Source: Promethearchaeota archaeon (GTDB lineage: Archaea > Asgardarchaeota > Lokiarchaeia > Sigyniarchaeales > SOKP01). Taken from it: a stretch of DNA of 33,457 nucleotides. The notes under the pieces are model-generated. The model worked only from the letters and a program-made list of their open reading frames with translations. It was not told where the DNA came from and ran no database searches. This document shows, piece by piece, positions 1,825 to 10,139 of this stretch; position 1 is the first letter of the stretch, and every line of letters starts with the position of its first letter. Made by a program: the position numbers and the translations under genes. The stretch spans positions 1-33,457 of the forward strand of contig JALGVJ010000037.1 in the NCBI GenBank assembly GCA_029838195.1. The letters are read 5' to 3'.

Positions 1825-2916
1825 TTATTGTGAGTATTTGTAATAAATGGCGCAAGTGCCTTCATGAGAAACCATGCACGGTCCGATTGGATTCAGGGGA
1901 GTGCAAGTAGTTTTAAACAATTTGCATTCATATGGATATATTTTTCCGGTCATTACTAAGTGGCACGAACATCCTGGAGGGATATCCATCGATTGTTTCA
2001 CTTGGATATTAAATTTTTCTTCGGCATCGTATTGTTTATATTTCGAATTAATTTTAAGACCCCCATCTAATACTCGTCCAATTCCCCTCCATGGGGATGA
2101 GATTTTTTCAAATACTTCTTTTATAATGTTTTGGGCTATTAAATTTCCTTCAGGTTTAACGACTCGAGAATACTCGTTTAACGTGTCATATTTTTTATCT
2201 CGAATGAGTTTTAACACCATGAAGAGTCCTAACAGCACGTCATTGGGCTCGAATCCTGTTATGACATTGGGAACGCGATAAGCTTCTGAAAATAATTTAA
2301 AGGGAGATAAGCCAATTATGCTGGCCACGTGTCCTGGTGAGATAAATCCATCAATGTTAAGCCTGTCAATACTCATTAAAAGTTCCAATGCTGCTGGAAT
2401 TAATTTATGGGCACATAAAACAGAAAAATTGGAGGGCGGATGAGAAAAGAGTTCATATCCAATCAAGGGAACCGTGGTTTCGAATCCAATGGCAAAAAAA
2501 ATAACATTTTTATTGGGATTGTCTCTTGCTATTTTAACCGCATCATGAGGGCCGTATATAATTCGAATATCTGCACCTTTTGCTTTAATTTCAGCAAGAG
2601 AAAGATTTGTAGCCGGCACGCGTATCATATCTCCAAAGGTCGTGATAATGGTATTTTTTCGCTTGGCAAGTAAAATAGCTTTATCAATATCAGCAGCGGG
2701 GCAGACACATACAGGGCATCCGGGACCAGAAATGATTTCCAAATCTGATGAAAGCAAGGAGCGGATACCGAATCTTGAAATGACATGTTCGTGCGTTCCG
2801 CAGACGTGCATGATTTTTATGGGACGACCGAGTTCTTTCATTATTTTATTTAGGGAGGCAACGATCTTTTTGGTAAACTCTTTGCTTTTTAGCGTGCTAA
2901 GGCCTGGGAAACTCAT
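1825..2916 (-). CDS. hypD: Hydrogenase maturation protein HypD
   Basis: MHVCGTHEH, GPGCPVC, GFETT, PGHV, GFEP and C-terminal CxC...C..F...CTP..PIGPCMVS.EGTC motifs. Confidence 0.97.
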   Translation of the reverse strand: MSFPGLSTLKSKEFTKKIVASLNKIMKELGRPIKIMHVCGTHEHVISRFGIRSLLSSDLEIISGPGCPVCVCPAADIDKAILLAKRKNTIITTFGDMIRVPATNLSLAEIKAKGADIRIIYGPHDAVKIARDNPNKNVIFFAIGFETTVPLIGYELFSHPPSNFSVLCAHKLIPAALELLMSIDRLNIDGFISPGHVASIIGLSPFKLFSEAYRVPNVITGFEPNDVLLGLFMVLKLIRDKKYDTLNEYSRVVKPEGNLIAQNIIKEVFEKISSPWRGIGRVLDGGLKINSKYKQYDAEEKFNIQVKQSMDIPPGCSCHLVMTGKIYPYECKLFKTTCTPLNPIGPCMVSHEGTCAIYYKYSQ

Positions 2917-3054
2917 TTTAACGAGGGATGCATTGTTAATATACTGATAATATGGAAAATATCTTAGATTTAATAAATAGAATGGATATGGAAATTAAGT
3001 CTTTCAAGAAGGAAAAAATTTTTAATGAGATTTATTCATTATACCTTATTAAAA

Positions 3055-4065
3055 TTAAGGTTCAACATAATATTTTCCTTCTTTCTTGTATACAAATCTA
3101 AGGAAGAGACCCGTGAGAAGTTTCATGAAGAATTTCATCATGGTTCTTTTGACGGGATTTTGCTTTAATCCGGGATAACCTTGAATTTTTTGAGCGGTGA
3201 TCTCGTGAAGGTGTTTCCAAGCGCGGATTGAAACATCCACAAACTTTTCAGGATCCAATACCTTTGAGGGCATTTGAATTTGGGGGGAATTGAGATCATT
3301 CGTGAGATACAAGCGTCCATCTCGCACGTCTTCTTCCTTGGAAGCACGAATTCGGACGGGATTATCATCAAATAATTCGGGATTCGTCAGATACACGGGT
3401 ACCAGGAGGTCCCAAATAATGGTATGGTCAATTTTGTGGATCATGCTCTCTAACCAGAGGGAATCTTCAAAAATTTGCCTGACATGTTTCGGCCAGAACT
3501 CTAGTTTTTTCAAGTGCTCCTTAGTAAAGGGCGCTTGCTTGCAGATATGACAATTGAAGACGGTTACCGGACAATCTGCCTGCAACACGTGAAAAGCTGC
3601 AATATCATCTCGCCTAAGATTTACGTCTTTAATTTTTGTACGCCCGATCGTGACGCGATCTTTAATAATACCGCCCATTAAGACGATTTCTTTTAAATTC
3701 TTAAAAAAATTGGGATCTAATTCTGCAGCACCTTTTAAATTGGTAAGAGGTCCCATGGCTAATAAGGAAATTTCTCCAGGATGAGCTACTGCTTGTTCTG
3801 CAAGGAATTTGGCAGCTTCTGTTGAGTAATCTCCTTTTTTAGCAGCACCTTTCAAGATGGGTATATCATCCCTACCAATAGCCCGCATGATTTTTTTCGT
3901 AGCTTTCATGACGTTATTAATATTACTATTTCCAAACACCGTTGTAATTCCAAGCAGCTCAAAATCCGGTACTCCAAGCACGTAATAGATTGCAAATCCA
4001 TCATCTGAGAACCATAACAGTTTTCCCATGGTATTATCGCAATCAATAATAATTTTTTTTTTCAT
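3055..4065 (-). CDS. Nucleoside hydrolase (IU-NH family)
   Basis: N-terminal DCDNTMG....DDG Asp cluster, LLGITTVFGN, MGPLTNL, VLMGG, and a late WD motif at the position of the family HD motif. Confidence 0.88.
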   Translation of the reverse strand: MKKKIIIDCDNTMGKLLWFSDDGFAIYYVLGVPDFELLGITTVFGNSNINNVMKATKKIMRAIGRDDIPILKGAAKKGDYSTEAAKFLAEQAVAHPGEISLLAMGPLTNLKGAAELDPNFFKNLKEIVLMGGIIKDRVTIGRTKIKDVNLRRDDIAAFHVLQADCPVTVFNCHICKQAPFTKEHLKKLEFWPKHVRQIFEDSLWLESMIHKIDHTIIWDLLVPVYLTNPELFDDNPVRIRASKEEDVRDGRLYLTNDLNSPQIQMPSKVLDPEKFVDVSIRAWKHLHEITAQKIQGYPGLKQNPVKRTMMKFFMKLLTGLFLRFVYKKEGKYYVEP

Positions 4066-4570: not shown

Positions 4571-5800
4571 ATGTTTCATGCGTTGGATGAAAAAACGGTT
4601 ACTGAATACATACTGAAATCTCCCATTGGAAATACAATTTTCGAAGGATTAAATGACTTGATTGGAGTAGATTTGGCAGAAGGCAACGTTAATCTTGTAT
4701 TTCGCGTGTATAGTAAGAGTAATCCTGAAAAATCCGTGATCGTGAAGCAAGCTCTTGATCATGCCAGGCGTTATCCCGATTTTAAAATGCCTCAAAAAAG
4801 AGCCGCTTTAGAAGCTGAAATGCTAAAAATCGAGAATAAATATTGTCCTGGCCTAGCTCCCGAACATTATTATCATGATGAGGAAATGTATTTGAACATC
4901 ATGGAAGATTTAAATAAACACGTGATCATGCGCGTAGGGCTCATGCAACAAGTAAAATATCCTAAATTTGCCGAGCATCTTGGTACGTTCCTAGCAAGAA
5001 CGTTGTTTTATACTTCAGATTTTTATCTGCCTTCTGCTGAGAAAAAAGAGATGGCAGCAAGAATCTTAAACACCGTCATGTGCAAAGTTACAGAAGATCT
5101 CATCTTTACAGAGCCTTATATCGATCATTCTAATAATCATTGGACGAAAGAATTAACACCCCATGTGAAAGCGATTAAGGCAAACAAAAAAATGCAAGCA
5201 GAAGCTTTAAAACTCAAAGAATCTTTCATGACGCATCAGCAAGCTTTAATTCACGGGGATCTTCATACAGGCTCCATCATGATAAATCAACAAGAAACGA
5301 AAGTTCTGGATCCAGAGTTTGCGTTCTTCGGCCCAATGGGGTTTGATATAGGGATGCTTTTAGCGAATTTAGTTATTAGCCATGGTTCGCAAGAGTATCA
5401 TGCGAAAGATGAAAACACGAGACAAGAATATCGGGAATGGTTATTACAAACCATTGAAGATACATGGAATCAATTCGAATCCGAATTTAGATACTTGATG
5501 GAATATAAAATTAATGACCAATGGCCCTCCGAACTATTTAAGGAAGAGTACGTGGCACAATTACTACGTGATACCGCTGGTTTCGGTGCGGCAGAGATCA
5601 TTCGCAGGACAATTGGAATGGCACACGTCCCAGATTGGTGGGAGATTCCGAGTGATAAAGAGCGAGCAGTTGCAGAAAGCATTGGGTTAAGCGCAGCGGA
5701 AGCATGGATGCTACATCAACATGAAGTTACGTCCATTAAAGAATTAGTTGATATGGTTCGGGAGGCTCGCCCTCATCCGGACGTTTTAAAAGCGAGGTGA
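4571..5800 (+). CDS. mtnK: S-methyl-5-thioribose (or 5-deoxyribose) kinase
   Basis: GNVNLVF, VKQAL, TEDLIFTEPY, HGDLHTGS, DPEFAFFGPMGFDIG and EIIRRTIGMAHV motifs of the MtnK family. Confidence 0.93.
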   Translation: MFHALDEKTVTEYILKSPIGNTIFEGLNDLIGVDLAEGNVNLVFRVYSKSNPEKSVIVKQALDHARRYPDFKMPQKRAALEAEMLKIENKYCPGLAPEHYYHDEEMYLNIMEDLNKHVIMRVGLMQQVKYPKFAEHLGTFLARTLFYTSDFYLPSAEKKEMAARILNTVMCKVTEDLIFTEPYIDHSNNHWTKELTPHVKAIKANKKMQAEALKLKESFMTHQQALIHGDLHTGSIMINQQETKVLDPEFAFFGPMGFDIGMLLANLVISHGSQEYHAKDENTRQEYREWLLQTIEDTWNQFESEFRYLMEYKINDQWPSELFKEEYVAQLLRDTAGFGAAEIIRRTIGMAHVPDWWEIPSDKERAVAESIGLSAAEAWMLHQHEVTSIKELVDMVREARPHPDVLKAR

Positions 5801-6870
5801 ATCAAGTGAGCACGTATAAGAGTATTGAATGGAAAGAGGATCGATTGGTTCTATTAGATCAGCGAGTCCTTCCTCGTGAAATTTCCTATATAGAATATAA
5901 GCATCATGAAGACGTAGCTAAAGCCATCAAGGATATGGTCGTGCGTGGTGCTCCTGCAATAGGCGCAACAGCTGCTTATGGCTTAGTCTTGGCCACGCGG
6001 GAAAAAGCCACGAAAGAACTTTCAGAACTTCGTAATTATCTTAGCAAGGCAGCAGAACTCCTCCAGGCAGCTCGTCCAACAGCAGTTAATTTATTTTGGG
6101 CAATTGATCGAGTTATAAAAAAAGCTCATGAGGATTCAATTAAAACCGTGGAGGATTTAAAAAAAGTCGTACTAAATGAAGCACATCAAATTGCGGAAGA
6201 AGATATAGAAATGAATAAAAAAATTGGATTAAATGCCTTGCCTTTATGTTCAGAGAAAGTTACCTTCATTCATCATTGTAATACGGGTGCCTTAGCGACG
6301 GTTGACTATGGTACTGCTTTAGGCATCATTCGTACGGCTCATGAACACGGAAGAGATGTATTTGTTTACGTGGATGAGACTCGACCCCGCTTACAAGGGG
6401 CTCGTTTAACTTCTTGGGAACTAAAGCAATTAGGAATAAAACATAAAGTCATTGTTGATGGAGCTTCAGGATACTTCATGGCAACCGGAAAAGTGGATTT
6501 AGTGACTGTTGGGGCAGATCGCATTGCCCGAAATGGAGATACGGCTAATAAAATTGGAACATACAATCTTGCAATTGTTGCAAAAGCCCATGATGTTCCT
6601 TTTTATGTAGCCGCTCCCACGAGTACAATTGATTTATCAATTGCCAACGGAAAAGAGATAAAAATAGAAGAACGCTCCGCTGAAGAGATAACAACGATTT
6701 TGGGTCAACAAATCACGCCTGATGACGTGAATGTTGCAAATCCCGCTTTTGATGTTACCCCGGCAAAGTATATTACAGGTATCATAACAGAGATGGGTAT
6801 TGCACGCCCGCCTTATGAAAAAAGTTTAACGGAAATGGTAGAACGTGCGGAAAATGAGAGAAAAAAATGA
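5797..6870 (+). CDS. mtnA: S-methyl-5-thioribose-1-phosphate isomerase
   Basis: LLDQR.LP, MVVRGAPAIG, ARPTAVNL, HCNTGALAT, ETRP.LQGARLT, GADRI..NGD.ANKIGTY and NPAFDVTP motifs. The start may be the in-frame GTG at 5806, which lies 5 nt after GAGGTGA. Confidence 0.95.
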   Translation: MNQVSTYKSIEWKEDRLVLLDQRVLPREISYIEYKHHEDVAKAIKDMVVRGAPAIGATAAYGLVLATREKATKELSELRNYLSKAAELLQAARPTAVNLFWAIDRVIKKAHEDSIKTVEDLKKVVLNEAHQIAEEDIEMNKKIGLNALPLCSEKVTFIHHCNTGALATVDYGTALGIIRTAHEHGRDVFVYVDETRPRLQGARLTSWELKQLGIKHKVIVDGASGYFMATGKVDLVTVGADRIARNGDTANKIGTYNLAIVAKAHDVPFYVAAPTSTIDLSIANGKEIKIEERSAEEITTILGQQITPDDVNVANPAFDVTPAKYITGIITEMGIARPPYEKSLTEMVERAENERKK

Positions 6871-7035
6871 ATTAATGAAACTACATGAGAACTTTCTAAA
6901 ATTTAACTTAAAGATTATTTTTCTTGATTTAATTTAAATGACAATTCATGAACAAGAATAAAAACGTTATCATTTAAAATCTCTACTAAATACAAATTTA
7001 CGATATAAATTTAAATAGAATAATAGGTTAAAAAG

Positions 7036-7992
7036 ATGCATTTTAATAGAGAAAAAACTTCGGTGTTAGATTCGAATTGGCAAGAAAGAGCTCGGCAAAT
7101 AGCTCATCGAGTTCGATGCAGGGTTTTAGAGCACGTGATTAAGAATAATGGGGGTTATCTTAGTCAAGCATGCTCTTCCGCCGAAACTTTGGCCACGCTT
7201 TATGTGAAAATAATGAACTTGGGGCCGAGTCAAGGTCCCATGATCCCTCAACCTTTTTCGGGAGTGCCGAGTGCTGATAATCCCGACTATTTCCGAGGAA
7301 GTGCGTATAATGGGCCAAAATCTCCGGAATTAGATCGTTTTTTCTTTGGGCCTGTCCATTATTCATTAGTACTTTATTCCGTGTTAATTGAAGTAGGAAG
7401 AATGGCTCCTAGCGCATTAGACCAATTCAATCAAGATGGAAGCACGGTAGAAATGATTGGAGCCGAGCATTCACCGGGTATAGAACTAACAAGTGGGAGC
7501 TTGGCTCAAACATTAAGTCAAGCGGGGGGGATTGCGTTGGCTCGAAAGCTAAAGGGAGAAACCGGCCGTTGTTGGGTATATCTTTCAGATGGAGAATTTC
7601 AAGAAGGACAAACATATGAAGCGTTTCAAGCTCTGGCATATTATAATATAGACAATATTGGCGTATATGTAGACGTGAACGGTCAGCAATGCGATGGGAA
7701 AATGACGGATGTCATGAATATTGAACCATTAAAAGAGCGGTTAGAAGCTTTTGGGGCCCGCGTCTTTAAAGTAAACGGACATGATGTCAATGAGCTTGCA
7801 GCTCCGGCAAGTCTTAAACCAGATGGAAGGCCACTTGTCGTCTTAGCTTATACAGATCCGTGTAGGGGGATATCATTACTGGAAGAGCGGAGGCCTCGCC
7901 TTCATTACGTGCGGTTCAAGAGTGAGGAAGAAAAACAGCGGTATATCGAATATTTAAAACTTTTAAAGAAAGAACTCGAAGTGGAGGTGTGA
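7036..7992 (+). CDS. Transketolase-like ThDP enzyme, N-terminal (PP-binding) subunit, non-canonical active site
   Basis: DRFF...H, PGIE.TSGSL.Q.LS.A.G.A, ThDP/Mg motif SDGEFQEGQTYEA...DVN..Q.DG, and VNGHD. Confidence 0.88.
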   Translation: MHFNREKTSVLDSNWQERARQIAHRVRCRVLEHVIKNNGGYLSQACSSAETLATLYVKIMNLGPSQGPMIPQPFSGVPSADNPDYFRGSAYNGPKSPELDRFFFGPVHYSLVLYSVLIEVGRMAPSALDQFNQDGSTVEMIGAEHSPGIELTSGSLAQTLSQAGGIALARKLKGETGRCWVYLSDGEFQEGQTYEAFQALAYYNIDNIGVYVDVNGQQCDGKMTDVMNIEPLKERLEAFGARVFKVNGHDVNELAAPASLKPDGRPLVVLAYTDPCRGISLLEERRPRLHYVRFKSEEEKQRYIEYLKLLKKELEVEV

Positions 7993-7995
7993 TAC

Positions 7996-9003
7996 ATGGA
8001 AATTTTAACTAAAGTTCACAATCATAATTTAGTTAAATGGGCAAGAGATAAGCCAGAAGTCGTAGTTCTTTCAGCTGATCTTACAAGCTCTACGGAAATT
8101 GATATGTTTCGAGAAGCATATCCCAATAGGTTTTTTTCAATGGGCATGGCAGAACAAAACATGGTGAGTTTTGCGGGAGGTCTCGCACGGGAGGGTTTTT
8201 ATCCCTTTATTCACACGTTTGCGGTCTTTATCTATAGACAAGCTTATAATCAAATCGTGTGCTCAGTTGCGTATCCAAATTTGCCTGTACGATTTTTTGG
8301 TTTTCTTCCCGGTATTACAACACCTGGAGGTATAACGCATCAAGCGATTGAGGATATTGCAGTCATGAGAGTAATTCCTAACATGACAGTTATAGAACCT
8401 GGGGATGCCACCGAAATCGAGACCATGTTGGATGTAATACAGGCAGTAAATGGACCCGTATACGTGCGCATGTTGCGAGGGGAAATTCCCCGTCTTTTTC
8501 CTCAAGAAGAGCCTTTTCGATTGGATGAGCCTCGCTTGCTTAGTACGGGCTCTGACATCACTGTATTTTCAAGTGGAATCTGCACTGAAGAGGCAATTAG
8601 AGCCATTAAAGTTCTTAAAGAATGTGGTGTTTCCATTCAGCACGTCCATGTTTCTACCCATAAACCTTTTAAAAATCCTTTAATTCTCGAGGGCGTGAAA
8701 AAAGCTAAGTATGGCATCATTACAATGGAGAATCATGCGATTTTGGGCGGTTTGGGAACAGAAATTGCTGAATTAATGGCAGACCATGGCGTGAGTAAAC
8801 AATTGATTCGAATGGGGTTGAAAGATTGTTTTGCTCATGGAGCTTCTCGTCATTATCTCATGAAAGAATATGGGTTTGATTCATTATCATTAATAAAACA
8901 AGTAGAAACCTTATTAGGAACTTCATTTAATATTTCCGAAGATGATCTTGCTGCTGTTCGGATTGAACCCATTCATAGTGATGCGAAACCAGAAGCTTTA
9001 TAA
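7996..9003 (+). CDS. Transketolase-like ThDP enzyme, C-terminal (pyrimidine-binding plus C-terminal) subunit
   Basis: LSADL..S, RFFSMGMAEQNM...A.GLA, TFA.F..R, THQAIEDIA.MR.IPNM.V..P.D, GPVYVR..R, ENH...GGLG. Preceded by a GGAGGTG ribosome-binding motif. Confidence 0.9.
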   Translation: MEILTKVHNHNLVKWARDKPEVVVLSADLTSSTEIDMFREAYPNRFFSMGMAEQNMVSFAGGLAREGFYPFIHTFAVFIYRQAYNQIVCSVAYPNLPVRFFGFLPGITTPGGITHQAIEDIAVMRVIPNMTVIEPGDATEIETMLDVIQAVNGPVYVRMLRGEIPRLFPQEEPFRLDEPRLLSTGSDITVFSSGICTEEAIRAIKVLKECGVSIQHVHVSTHKPFKNPLILEGVKKAKYGIITMENHAILGGLGTEIAELMADHGVSKQLIRMGLKDCFAHGASRHYLMKEYGFDSLSLIKQVETLLGTSFNISEDDLAAVRIEPIHSDAKPEAL

Positions 9004-9008
9004 TAGGG

Positions 9009-10139
9009 ATGAGCATGAAATTAAGTGGAGAAAGATTTAAAGTCATTTATAGTTTGACAGGCAATGCTGAGGAGGCTAGGAAAAAAGCTAAGGATATTTG
9101 TTATGAGCAAACCGTAGAATTTCCAGAAGATTTAATTCCTTCGGGAATAATAAAGGAGGAAATCGTGGGAAAAATTGAGGATTTAATTAAAATTGAGGAA
9201 AATCGATTTAAAGCCACTATTAGTTATGCAATAGAAATTACTGGTTTTGAAATCACCCAAATCCTCAACATAATTTTCGGTAATATTAGCATTAAACCCG
9301 GAATCAAGGTGGAGAACATCCAATTTTCAGACCTGCTCCTTAAACACTTTAAAGGACCCCGATTTGGACGATCAGGAATAAGAAAATTGCTTGACGTTCC
9401 GAATCGACCAATATTATGCACGGCATTAAAACCCATGGGCCTTTCTCCCCAACAATTAGCCGATTTCGCATATCAATTTGCCAAAGGAGGCATTGATATC
9501 ATTAAAGATGACCATGGTATTGCAAACCAAGAATTTTGTCCCCTTGAGAAGCGCATTAAATCATGTTGTGAGGCGGTTGAAAAAGCAAATCGTGAAACGG
9601 GCTATAATTGTCTTTACATGCCAAATATTGGTGGCCCTTTGGAAAAAATTAGGGATAAAATAATGATGGCGAAAGAAACTGGGGTAGGAGGTCTGTTGCT
9701 TTGTCCAGGTCTCATCGGGTTTGATATTTGTCGCCAATTAACCGAAAATGATGATATTTTGCTGCCGGTATTAGCTCATCCCGCACTTTTGGGAAGTTTT
9801 GTTACCAGTCGTGAAAATGGGATTTCCCATGGGATTATTTTTGGTCAACTTATGCGATTAATAGGAGCAGATGCCATCATCTATCCGAATTATGGAGGAA
9901 GATTCTCTTTTACCCCAGAAGAATGTAAATCTATTGTCGAAATGACTCAATCCCCCATGGCACACTTTTCTCCTATTTTTCCAGCTCCAGCAGGAGGGAT
10001 GACCATGAACCGCATCCCTGAAATGCTTGATTTTTATGGAAATGAGGTAATTTTCCTCATTGGAGGAGATTTACATCGTCATGGAAAGAACCTCATAAAA
10101 AATAGTAAAAAATTTAAAAAATTAGTCGAAAGTTTATGA
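9009..10139 (+). CDS. RuBisCO-like protein (form IV RLP), resembling the MTRu-1-P 1,3-isomerase type
   Basis: EQTVE, FGN, GPRFG..G.R, CTALKPMGL, GGIDIIKDDHG (9504-9515 = KDDH), AHP, GAD..IYPNYGGRF, PAPAGG, LIGG. Several carboxylase residues are substituted. An alternative start is ATG 9015. Confidence 0.92.
   Translation: MSMKLSGERFKVIYSLTGNAEEARKKAKDICYEQTVEFPEDLIPSGIIKEEIVGKIEDLIKIEENRFKATISYAIEITGFEITQILNIIFGNISIKPGIKVENIQFSDLLLKHFKGPRFGRSGIRKLLDVPNRPILCTALKPMGLSPQQLADFAYQFAKGGIDIIKDDHGIANQEFCPLEKRIKSCCEAVEKANRETGYNCLYMPNIGGPLEKIRDKIMMAKETGVGGLLLCPGLIGFDICRQLTENDDILLPVLAHPALLGSFVTSRENGISHGIIFGQLMRLIGADAIIYPNYGGRFSFTPEECKSIVEMTQSPMAHFSPIFPAPAGGMTMNRIPEMLDFYGNEVIFLIGGDLHRHGKNLIKNSKKFKKLVESL

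Follow-up and report, generated by a model that had tools for sequence, protein, structure and literature searches.

5'-Methylthioadenosine (MTA), like 5'-deoxyadenosine, is a by-product that S-adenosylmethionine chemistry cannot avoid, and the known routes that lead on from methylthioribose-1-phosphate isomerase (MtnA) comprise the universal methionine salvage pathway, a cupin-dependent shunt to 1-deoxy-D-xylulose-5-phosphate (DXP), and an aldolase-dependent dihydroxyacetone phosphate (DHAP) shunt. Here, we investigated a stretch of 33,457 nucleotides from a Promethearchaeota archaeon (assembly GCA_029838195.1, contig JALGVJ010000037.1, positions 1-33,457 of the forward strand; hereafter the window), which encodes the kinase MtnK and MtnA followed by the N and C subunits of a transketolase-like enzyme (TKN and TKC) and a RuBisCO-like protein (RLP). 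The focus is on the transketolase-like pair, in which several substrate-binding residues of canonical transketolases are replaced, and which, being encoded just before the RLP, probably cleaves the sulfur- or deoxy-sugar product of that protein.

The DeepYkr-type RLPs of Rhodospirillum rubrum and Rhodopseudomonas palustris (RLP1) have been reported as 5-methylthioribulose-1-phosphate 1,3-isomerases, converting this compound into 1-methylthio-xylulose-5-phosphate and 1-methylthio-ribulose-5-phosphate, and the cupin encoded next to the RLP strips the methylthio group to give DXP (PMC5893883). [quoted passage not shown] The cupin has an unrelated fold, however, and its removal of the methylthio group is glutathione-dependent and yields DXP, whereas no cupin gene is found between positions 3055 and 10139 of the window and neither DXR nor DXS was found in the genome (4.5 Mb assembly, 96.6% complete), so that DXP would be without an isoprenoid sink in this archaeon. 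In the DHAP shunt, Ald2 and DrdA follow MtnK or MtnP and MtnA, and split their C5 sugar phosphate, yielding a triose phosphate together with a C2 aldehyde, 2-methylthioacetaldehyde or acetaldehyde. The net outcome equals that of the aldehyde route proposed below for TKN/TKC, but Ald2 and DrdA are metal-dependent class II aldolases acting on the ribulose-1-phosphate directly, without an RLP or thiamine diphosphate (ThDP). Genes for class II aldolases (PF00596) are absent from the window, and three are found on other contigs of the genome.

The split transketolase of Carboxydothermus hydrogenoformans (6yak/6yaj) and the canonical split transketolase of the archaeal genome itself are likewise encoded by adjacent genes, one for the pyrophosphate-binding (PP) domain and one for the pyrimidine-binding (Pyr) and C-terminal domains. 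Such canonical split enzymes are the best match to the pair in both sequence and fold, and have the ThDP motif, the activating glutamate and the equivalents of His66, His261 and His473 (Escherichia coli TktA numbering) in common with it, but carry SGH, GHP, THxG and G(E/K)DG where the RLP-linked family carries GGY, MIG, FLPG and TPGG in addition to a 34-residue insertion. All ten characterized split transketolases retain the equivalent of His100, the residue that constitutes the main donor-pocket difference between E. coli transketolase and DXS, where it is usually replaced by Phe or Tyr (PMC13663882). DXS belongs to the same ThDP superfamily, has Phe in the His100 column, carries a CH3-bearing C2 fragment and handles DXP and glyceraldehyde-3-phosphate, but it is a single chain, keeps the equivalents of His26 and Asp469 (His49 and Asp427), and is driven in the synthetic direction by decarboxylation. 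Hydrophobic residues have also been engineered into the His100 site, shifting donor preference toward pyruvate in E. coli (H100L/F) and Geobacillus stearothermophilus (H102L/F/T) transketolases; the E. coli variants H100L and H100F used pyruvate better as a donor, and altering His100 was termed critically required for pyruvate acceptance (bioRxiv 10.1101/719906). These variants are otherwise canonical, whereas in the RLP-linked family the change is a natural one that is coupled to the replacement of His26 by Tyr and to changes in the C subunit. A full-text search of the literature found no paper describing the RLP/transketolase-like pair or the cleavage step proposed here, and the term transketolase does not occur in Beaudoin 2018.

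Donor pocket of the transketolase-like subunits

The residues of the N subunit were mapped by three alignments: a phmmer alignment with the solved split transketolase 6yak, a MAFFT alignment that included TktA and Dxs of E. coli together with the canonical split transketolase of this genome, and an HHalign comparison of a 120-member family profile with a 35-member canonical profile (probability 100%). The 120 relatives are the best 120 of more than 4,600 found, and are 66-78% identical to the query N subunit. Canonical residues are given in TktA numbering, in which His26, His66, His100 and His261 correspond to yeast His30, His69, His103 and His263. All three alignments agree on the columns of the canonical histidines. 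With phmmer, NNGGY pairs with the ANSGH of 6yak, placing Tyr41 in the column of the SGH histidine, and the GHP histidine faces a one-residue gap between Met140 and Ile141. MAFFT equates TktA G99-H100-P101 with M140-I141-G142, with the P-F-P of Dxs in the same columns, and pairs H26 with Y41, H66 with H108 and H261 with H290. A sequence-only reading of this DNA had claimed that the canonical GHxG reads GGYLSQ (His to Tyr) and the GHP site S-T-V-E-M-I-G (7441-7461), that the DRF...H histidine, the ThDP motif and the late histidine of RLHY are kept, and that a Pro/Gly-rich insertion of about 30 residues precedes DRFF; the codons and alignments bear out all of this, with the family-conserved insertion measuring 34 residues (62-95). 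The insertion is absent from TktA, Dxs, the canonical split transketolase and the outer members of the Tyr-type clade described below.

The replaced positions are strictly conserved. Y41, I141, H145 and H290 are each found in 120/120 relatives, and position 140 is occupied by Met in 107, by Leu in 11 and by Gln in two, and this invariance means that the Tyr41/Met140-Ile141 pattern is not due to chance or sequencing error. His145 of AEHSPG (7468-7470) lies in the same loop, four residues past the His100 column, and is opposite Tyr105 of TktA in the HHalign comparison. The premise of the sequence-only reading, that the GHP histidine recognizes the donor and that hydrophobic replacements there aid the use of non-hydroxylated donors, matches published work (PMC13663882; bioRxiv 10.1101/719906).

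At the level of whole subunits, TKN has 6yak as its best solved relative (E 1.9e-35). An AlphaFold2 model based on a 25-sequence alignment reached a mean predicted local distance difference test (pLDDT) score of 82.8 and a predicted template modelling score (pTM) of 0.87, with loop 135-145 below pLDDT 50. Foldseek matched the model to split and human transketolases, with 6yak on top (TM-score 0.73/0.82), giving it the fold of a transketolase PP domain. The subunit scores below the cut-offs of both the NCBIfam transketolase equivalog (140.8 bits, cut-off 488) and PF13292, DXP_synthase_N (20.9 bits, cut-off 21.2). The C subunit has 6yaj as its best solved match (E 2.6e-60) and is similarly placed below the cut-offs of the transketolase equivalog (197.8 bits, cut-off 488) and of the dxs model TIGR00204 (177 bits, cut-off 465.95).

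The residues of the C subunit were mapped across 29 family members. Retained in all 29 are Glu53 (TktA E411, the cofactor-activating glutamate), His115 (H473), Arg161 (R520) and Ser32 (S385). FLPG (8302-8313, with Phe103/Leu104) stands where the canonical T-H-x-G carries His461 (yeast His469), and TPGG, with Gly111 (8326-8328), where the canonical G-E/K-D-G carries Asp469 (yeast Asp477), again in 29/29 members; both losses are also found in the C subunits of sister Tyr-type subfamilies. Across the two subunits, four canonical ligands of sugar hydroxyls or phosphate are thus gone while the cofactor machinery is intact. The retained ThDP motif, Glu53 and equivalents of His66, His261, His473, Arg520 and Ser385 favor a catalytically competent enzyme, and the RLP-linked pair appears to be a remodelled form of a known kind of transketolase, with a putative chemistry of lyase, transferase or methanethiol elimination type.

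The RuBisCO-like partner and the spread of the gene set

The closest solved relative of the RLP is 3qfw, the R. palustris RLP1 (262 bits, E 7e-77), with which it has the LKP-x-G and KDDH motifs in common; MtnW-type enolases come next with at most 166 bits, and the score against the MtnW model (231.9 bits) is below the cut-off of 409. Two further genes of the RuBisCO family are present in the genome, at positions 118179-119060 of contig C42 (PF00016, 318.9 bits) and 64228-65067 of contig C62 (141.4 bits), and the score of the former is strong enough for a putative true form III-type RuBisCO.

The three-gene unit of TKN, TKC and RLP is very widespread, with 60-78% identity across phyla. A scan using one genome per species returned more than 500 matching stretches, from Anaerolineae, Planctomycetota, Chromatiaceae, Spirochaetota, Myxococcota, Bacillota (e.g. 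Alicyclobacillus sp. ALC3), Acidobacteriota, Nitrospirota and others. In Alicyclobacillus sp. ALC3 (L066), genes for MtnK, MtnA, TKN, TKC and RLP stand in a row, and Marichromatium gracile and Thiorhodococcus drewsii are further culturable carriers of the trio. Of 72 loci, 69 have TKN and TKC side by side. Of the 66 loci with enough downstream sequence to be counted, 47, spread over many phyla, have an RLP gene that begins no more than 300 nt from TKC, and eight more have one at a distance of up to about 2 kb. MtnA is encoded near the transketolase pair in 16 loci and MtnK in six, and other recurrent neighbors are a ribose-type ABC importer and a SorC regulator, as well as, in locus L004, a nucleoside phosphorylase and a Bmp nucleoside importer. 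In the most closely related locus (L091), the RLP gene is directly followed by a gene for an inosine-uridine nucleoside hydrolase (IU-NH) family enzyme with 61% identity to the product of 3055..4065 in the window.

Two loci contain genes for pyridoxal phosphate (PLP)-dependent enzymes of Cys/Met metabolism: in L007 the gene directly follows TKC, and in L057 it lies upstream of TKN. In L007 (4912-8517), the N and C parts form a single open reading frame of 647 residues, and a PF01053 enzyme (422 bits) takes the usual position of the RLP. The archaeal genome has one strong gene of this PLP enzyme family. A further group of eight loci comes mainly from Chromatiaceae, in which a short-chain dehydrogenase/reductase (SDR) gene recurs directly upstream of tkN. 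In the two of these loci examined (L070:6132-6935 and L071:6153-6938), the SDR gene overlaps tkN and has cytochrome bd oxidase genes next to it, and in several of the eight the RLP is displaced or absent.

A search of 1.8 billion representative sequences returned fusions of the three proteins. RLP and transketolase parts are joined in single polypeptides in P0134 (L094:2663-4855), P0138 and P0139 (L093:1132-3759), the last of which also includes the C part, and in RLP-TKN-TKC fusions the RLP part comes first; P0133 and P0136 are TKN-TKC fusions. All of them carry GGYLSQACS together with ELIGAEHSPG or EMIGAEHSPG, and those with a C part (P0133, P0136 and P0139) also carry FLPG and PGG-x-THQ. 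The fusions are strong evidence that the RLP and the predicted ThDP enzyme act together. The gene models beside the RLP fusions look intron-interrupted, which suggests a eukaryotic source for these fusions.

The genes of the archaeal locus are listed in Table 1 together with the mapped features of the N subunit. On the forward strand, mtnK and mtnA overlap by 4 nt, and tkN, tkC and rlp follow in that order with gaps of only 3 nt (tkN-tkC) and 5 nt (tkC-rlp). The gap between mtnA and tkN (6871-7035) is 165 nt long and very AT-rich. Given this gap and the tight junctions after it, the tkN-tkC-rlp trio may own a separate promoter; an Rfam scan of the whole window gave zero matches, and thus no riboswitch in the gap. 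The product of the divergent gene upstream of mtnK is a candidate MTA/5'-deoxyadenosine nucleosidase that would feed MtnK.

Table 1. Genes of the mtnK-rlp locus and mapped features of the N subunit (positions in the window).
Feature	Position	Strand	Evidence
IU-NH family nucleoside hydrolase	3055..4065	-	PF01156, 138.6 bits; divergent, upstream of mtnK
MtnK, 5-methylthioribose kinase	4571..5800	+	TIGR01767, 468.9 bits (cut-off 275)
MtnA, methylthioribose-1-phosphate isomerase	5797..6870	+	NF004326, 479 bits (cut-off 271); TIGR00512, 449.7 bits (cut-off 279)
Transketolase-like N (ThDP/PP-domain) subunit, 318 aa	7036..7992	+	PF00456 (Transketolase_N), 59.5 bits
Tyr41 (NNGGYLSQ), replaces TktA His26 / yeast His30	7156..7158	+	Three alignments; 120/120 relatives
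Pro/Gly-rich insertion of 34 residues (62-95), before DRFF	7219..7320	+	Conserved across the family
His108 (DRFFFGPVH), TktA His66 / yeast His69, retained	7357..7359	+	His 115/120, Gln 5
Loop S136-G148 (STVEMIGAEHSPG); Met140/Ile141 replace the G-H-P histidine	7441..7479	+	Three alignments
ThDP/metal motif SDGE...N, D185 to N215	7588..7680	+	Aligned to TktA GDG...N; D185, G186, E187 and N215 in 120/120
His290 (RLHY), TktA His261 / yeast His263, retained	7903..7905	+	120/120 relatives
Transketolase-like C (Pyr plus C-terminal domain) subunit, 335 aa	7996..9003	+	PF02779 and PF02780
RLP, putative DeepYkr type, KDDH motif	9009..10139	+	Best solved relative 3qfw

The G+C content of the transketolase region (6001-9000) is 40%, compared to 31-38% in the remainder of the window, and in the phylogenetic tree the archaeal N subunit groups with P0003, next to the bacterial-labelled P0010 and P0084. 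Together, the raised G+C content and the tree neighbors P0010 and P0084 suggest that the cassette was acquired from bacteria. The genome itself is archaeal: it encodes ribosomal protein L21e, for which only the four archaeal control genomes gave matches, and all its transketolases are split, so that a cyanobacterial origin with a Microcystis-type RLP operon was rejected; the assembly contains no rRNA.

The wider Tyr-type clade

To place the donor-pocket pattern in a broader context, 84 representatives were compared and a FastTree phylogeny was rooted with Dxs. Every sequence with Tyr41 was also without the GHP histidine, and only E. coli Dxs, P0220 and P0239 combined His41 with the loss of that histidine. 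The Tyr-type sequences form one clade (FastTree support 0.97) of 42 tips, of which 36 have Tyr and six show secondary changes. Position 145 varies outside the RLP-linked family (His, Tyr, Phe, Thr, Arg, Gln), and position 141 remains hydrophobic.

Several members of the clade lie in other sugar-related gene settings. The P0140 enzyme (L095:2722-7937; 48% identical) keeps GGY and EMIGAEHSPG and has no RLP gene within 6 kb; its neighbors encode a zinc alcohol dehydrogenase, a PfkB kinase, a luciferase-like oxidoreductase, an aldo-keto reductase, a SorC regulator and a ribose-type ABC importer, and this cluster may be an alternative way to the same kind of substrate. P0178 has an SDR gene and an enolase-superfamily gene as neighbors, and one outermost Tyr-type subfamily is found in a sugar-acid gene setting. 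The P0153 pair (L097:6001-10315; 41% identical), with Phe at position 145, is encoded in a galactitol/ascorbate-type phosphotransferase system operon and is followed by genes for an alcohol dehydrogenase, a longer RLP (434 residues, featuring an N-terminal domain plus a KDDE motif) and a haloacid dehalogenase (HAD)-type phosphatase. Here an RLP and a transketolase-like enzyme are paired a second time, in a different manner. By its distribution, the Tyr-type pattern is predicted to mark a whole class of remodelled transketolase-like enzymes, which either all use donors lacking a C1 hydroxyl or have undergone a more general change, e.g. to a lyase rather than a transferase.

Proposed reaction and its alternatives

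Our preferred reading, held with about even confidence, is that TKN/TKC would be a ThDP-dependent enzyme that cleaves the C2-C3 bond of the RLP product and releases glyceraldehyde-3-phosphate. The products of 7036-7992 and 7996-9003 would form a split (α2β2-type) ThDP enzyme on a distinct Tyr-type branch of transketolases. The IU-NH hydrolase would cleave MTA or 5'-deoxyadenosine, MtnK would phosphorylate the sugar and MtnA isomerize it to 5-methylthio- or 5-deoxy-ribulose-1-phosphate, and the DeepYkr-type RLP would then move the carbonyl to give 1-methylthio-D-xylulose-5-phosphate or DXP. ThDP would attack C2 of this ketose and the C2-C3 bond would break, so that glyceraldehyde-3-phosphate leaves and the C2 fragment, bearing CH2-SCH3 or CH3, is held on the cofactor, with its non-hydroxylated C1 end sitting among Tyr41, Met140 and Ile141 at what is the two-histidine site of canonical enzymes. 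The fragment would finally exit as an aldehyde (2-methylthioacetaldehyde or acetaldehyde) or, for the thioether, lose methanethiol to leave acetyl-ThDP. We infer what the substrate is, in which direction the reaction runs and what becomes of the C2 unit from the observed substitutions and their invariance, the retained cofactor residues, the gene linkage and the fusions. The absence of DXR and DXS favors a need for cleavage over a DXP route.

The second exit would make the pair a "1-methylthio-xylulose-5-phosphate thiolyase", in which methanethiol leaves the ThDP enamine after release of glyceraldehyde-3-phosphate and the acetyl-ThDP is turned into acetate, acetyl-phosphate or acetyl-CoA. There are precedents for such a beta-elimination in the dehydration step of phosphoketolase and in the loss of sulfite in sulfoacetaldehyde acetyltransferase. 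The Cys/Met-metabolism PLP genes at L007 and L057 and the logic of sulfur salvage make methanethiol release an attractive thought, and we put it forward tentatively, as a possibility well short of an even chance.

The sequence-only reading had taken Met/Ile at the GHP site as a hydrophobic pocket for CH3 or CH2-SCH3, supplied by the neighboring RLP. Ile141 and Met140 beside an RLP expected to deliver a ketose with just such a C1 end would make a coherent picture, and the Phe that E. coli Dxs, with its CH3-bearing donor fragment, has in the His100 column, the H100L/F variants, the likely DeepYkr type of the RLP, and the linkage and fusions all speak for that part of the claim. What did not stand is the pattern as a mark of this operon, as it belongs to the older clade, and as a change confined to the C1 pocket, as the C subunit is altered as well.

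Several points weigh against the proposed cleavage. The single Tyr-type clade means that the two histidines were lost on one occasion only, long before the RLP-linked family appeared, and other branches of it (P0140, P0178) lie in sugar clusters without RLP or Mtn genes, so that the residues alone do not single out a methylthio or deoxy donor; gene linkage is what carries most of the weight for this assignment. Yet 11 of the 66 loci, mostly from Chromatiaceae, have no RLP within the fetched flank. Since the C subunit is also without the equivalents of His461 and Asp469, the remodelling reaches beyond the C1 pocket, and the loss of these two residues would not be predicted for a substrate shaped like xylulose-5-phosphate, in which the C4 hydroxyl and the phosphate are still there. 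The invariant His145 could reach into the pocket, and the activity ascribed to the archaeal RLP is deduced from about 260 bits of similarity.

Some of these points would suit a pair that acts directly on 5-methylthio- or 5-deoxy-ribulose-1-phosphate or on a 3-keto intermediate, with the RLP acting later or on a side product. The gene order mtnA, tkN, tkC, rlp fits such an earlier step, the altered phosphate and hydroxyl ligands of the C subunit suit a substrate unlike xylulose-5-phosphate, the loci without a nearby RLP would pose no difficulty, and a promiscuous transketolase cleavage of 5-deoxyribulose-1-phosphate was once suggested for Methanocaldococcus jannaschii, according to its citation in PMC8102628. 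We nevertheless regard this as unlikely, since a phosphate on C1 would need positive charge in the pocket rather than Tyr, Met and Ile, and since the RLP resembles R. palustris RLP1 in score and KDDH motif, and DeepYkr RLPs are reported to use the MtnA product (PMC5893883). The placement of the RLP ahead of TKN in the RLP-TKN-TKC fusion polypeptides also argues against it.

It is rather improbable that the pair is an ordinary transferase for hydroxylated ketose phosphates (xylulose-5-phosphate, fructose-6-phosphate, sedoheptulose-7-phosphate or related compounds), with His145 and Tyr41 making the hydrogen bonds that His100 and His26 otherwise provide, and with the RLP linkage reflecting a shared sugar-phosphate pool. 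The invariance of His145 and its place in the loop would allow for this, as would the ability of Tyr to donate a hydrogen bond, the retention of Arg161, Ser32 and His115 in the C subunit and the presence of just one other transketolase in the genome, but position 145 is variable outside the RLP-linked family while hydrophobic 141 persists, and the equivalent of Asp469, which holds the C2 hydroxyl of the acceptor, is Gly. That other transketolase is a canonical split enzyme on a different contig (L087:1432-2277 and 2286-3218); as this keeps SGH and GHP, the housekeeping role is covered. The score of the N subunit, far under the cut-off of the NCBIfam transketolase equivalog, likewise does not favor an ordinary transketolase.

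We see still less prospect for a DXS-like carboligase that would decarboxylate pyruvate, a methyl donor that would account for the hydrophobic pocket, and join the resulting C2 unit to one of the pathway's aldehydes. A hydrophobic residue in the column of the DXS Phe, the 177 bits of the C subunit against TIGR00204 and the absence of DXS from the genome would be in line with it, but DXS retains the equivalents of His26 and Asp469 that the RLP-linked family has lost, the N subunit scores just under the DXP_synthase_N cut-off, and the product of characterized DeepYkr RLPs is a ketose and not an aldehyde acceptor; with no DXR in the genome, the DXP formed would have no isoprenoid use. Finally, that the pair is catalytically dead or serves the RLP solely as a structural partner, as the four missing substrate ligands and the fusion to the RLP in some proteins could suggest, is highly improbable, since no variation is seen in the ThDP motif, the activating Glu or three catalytic histidines, and the invariance of the replaced positions indicates that a new site was selected for and not that the old one decayed.

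If the proposed cleavage is correct, the pair would represent a fourth way to complete the MTA pathway, with a ThDP enzyme in the place of the cupin, and would give a function to thousands of genes annotated merely as "transketolase". It would also be a natural case of the donor-pocket change that engineers make for non-hydroxylated donors. Should the thiolyase variant apply, it would provide a glutathione-free and oxygen-free conversion of MTA into methanethiol and two central metabolites. The enzyme for it would occur widely among bacteria and also in archaea, and some intron-bearing genes, which are probably eukaryotic, would have it fused to the RLP. Beyond the RLP-linked family, the Tyr-type clade suggests a whole class of transketolase-like enzymes in sugar catabolism.

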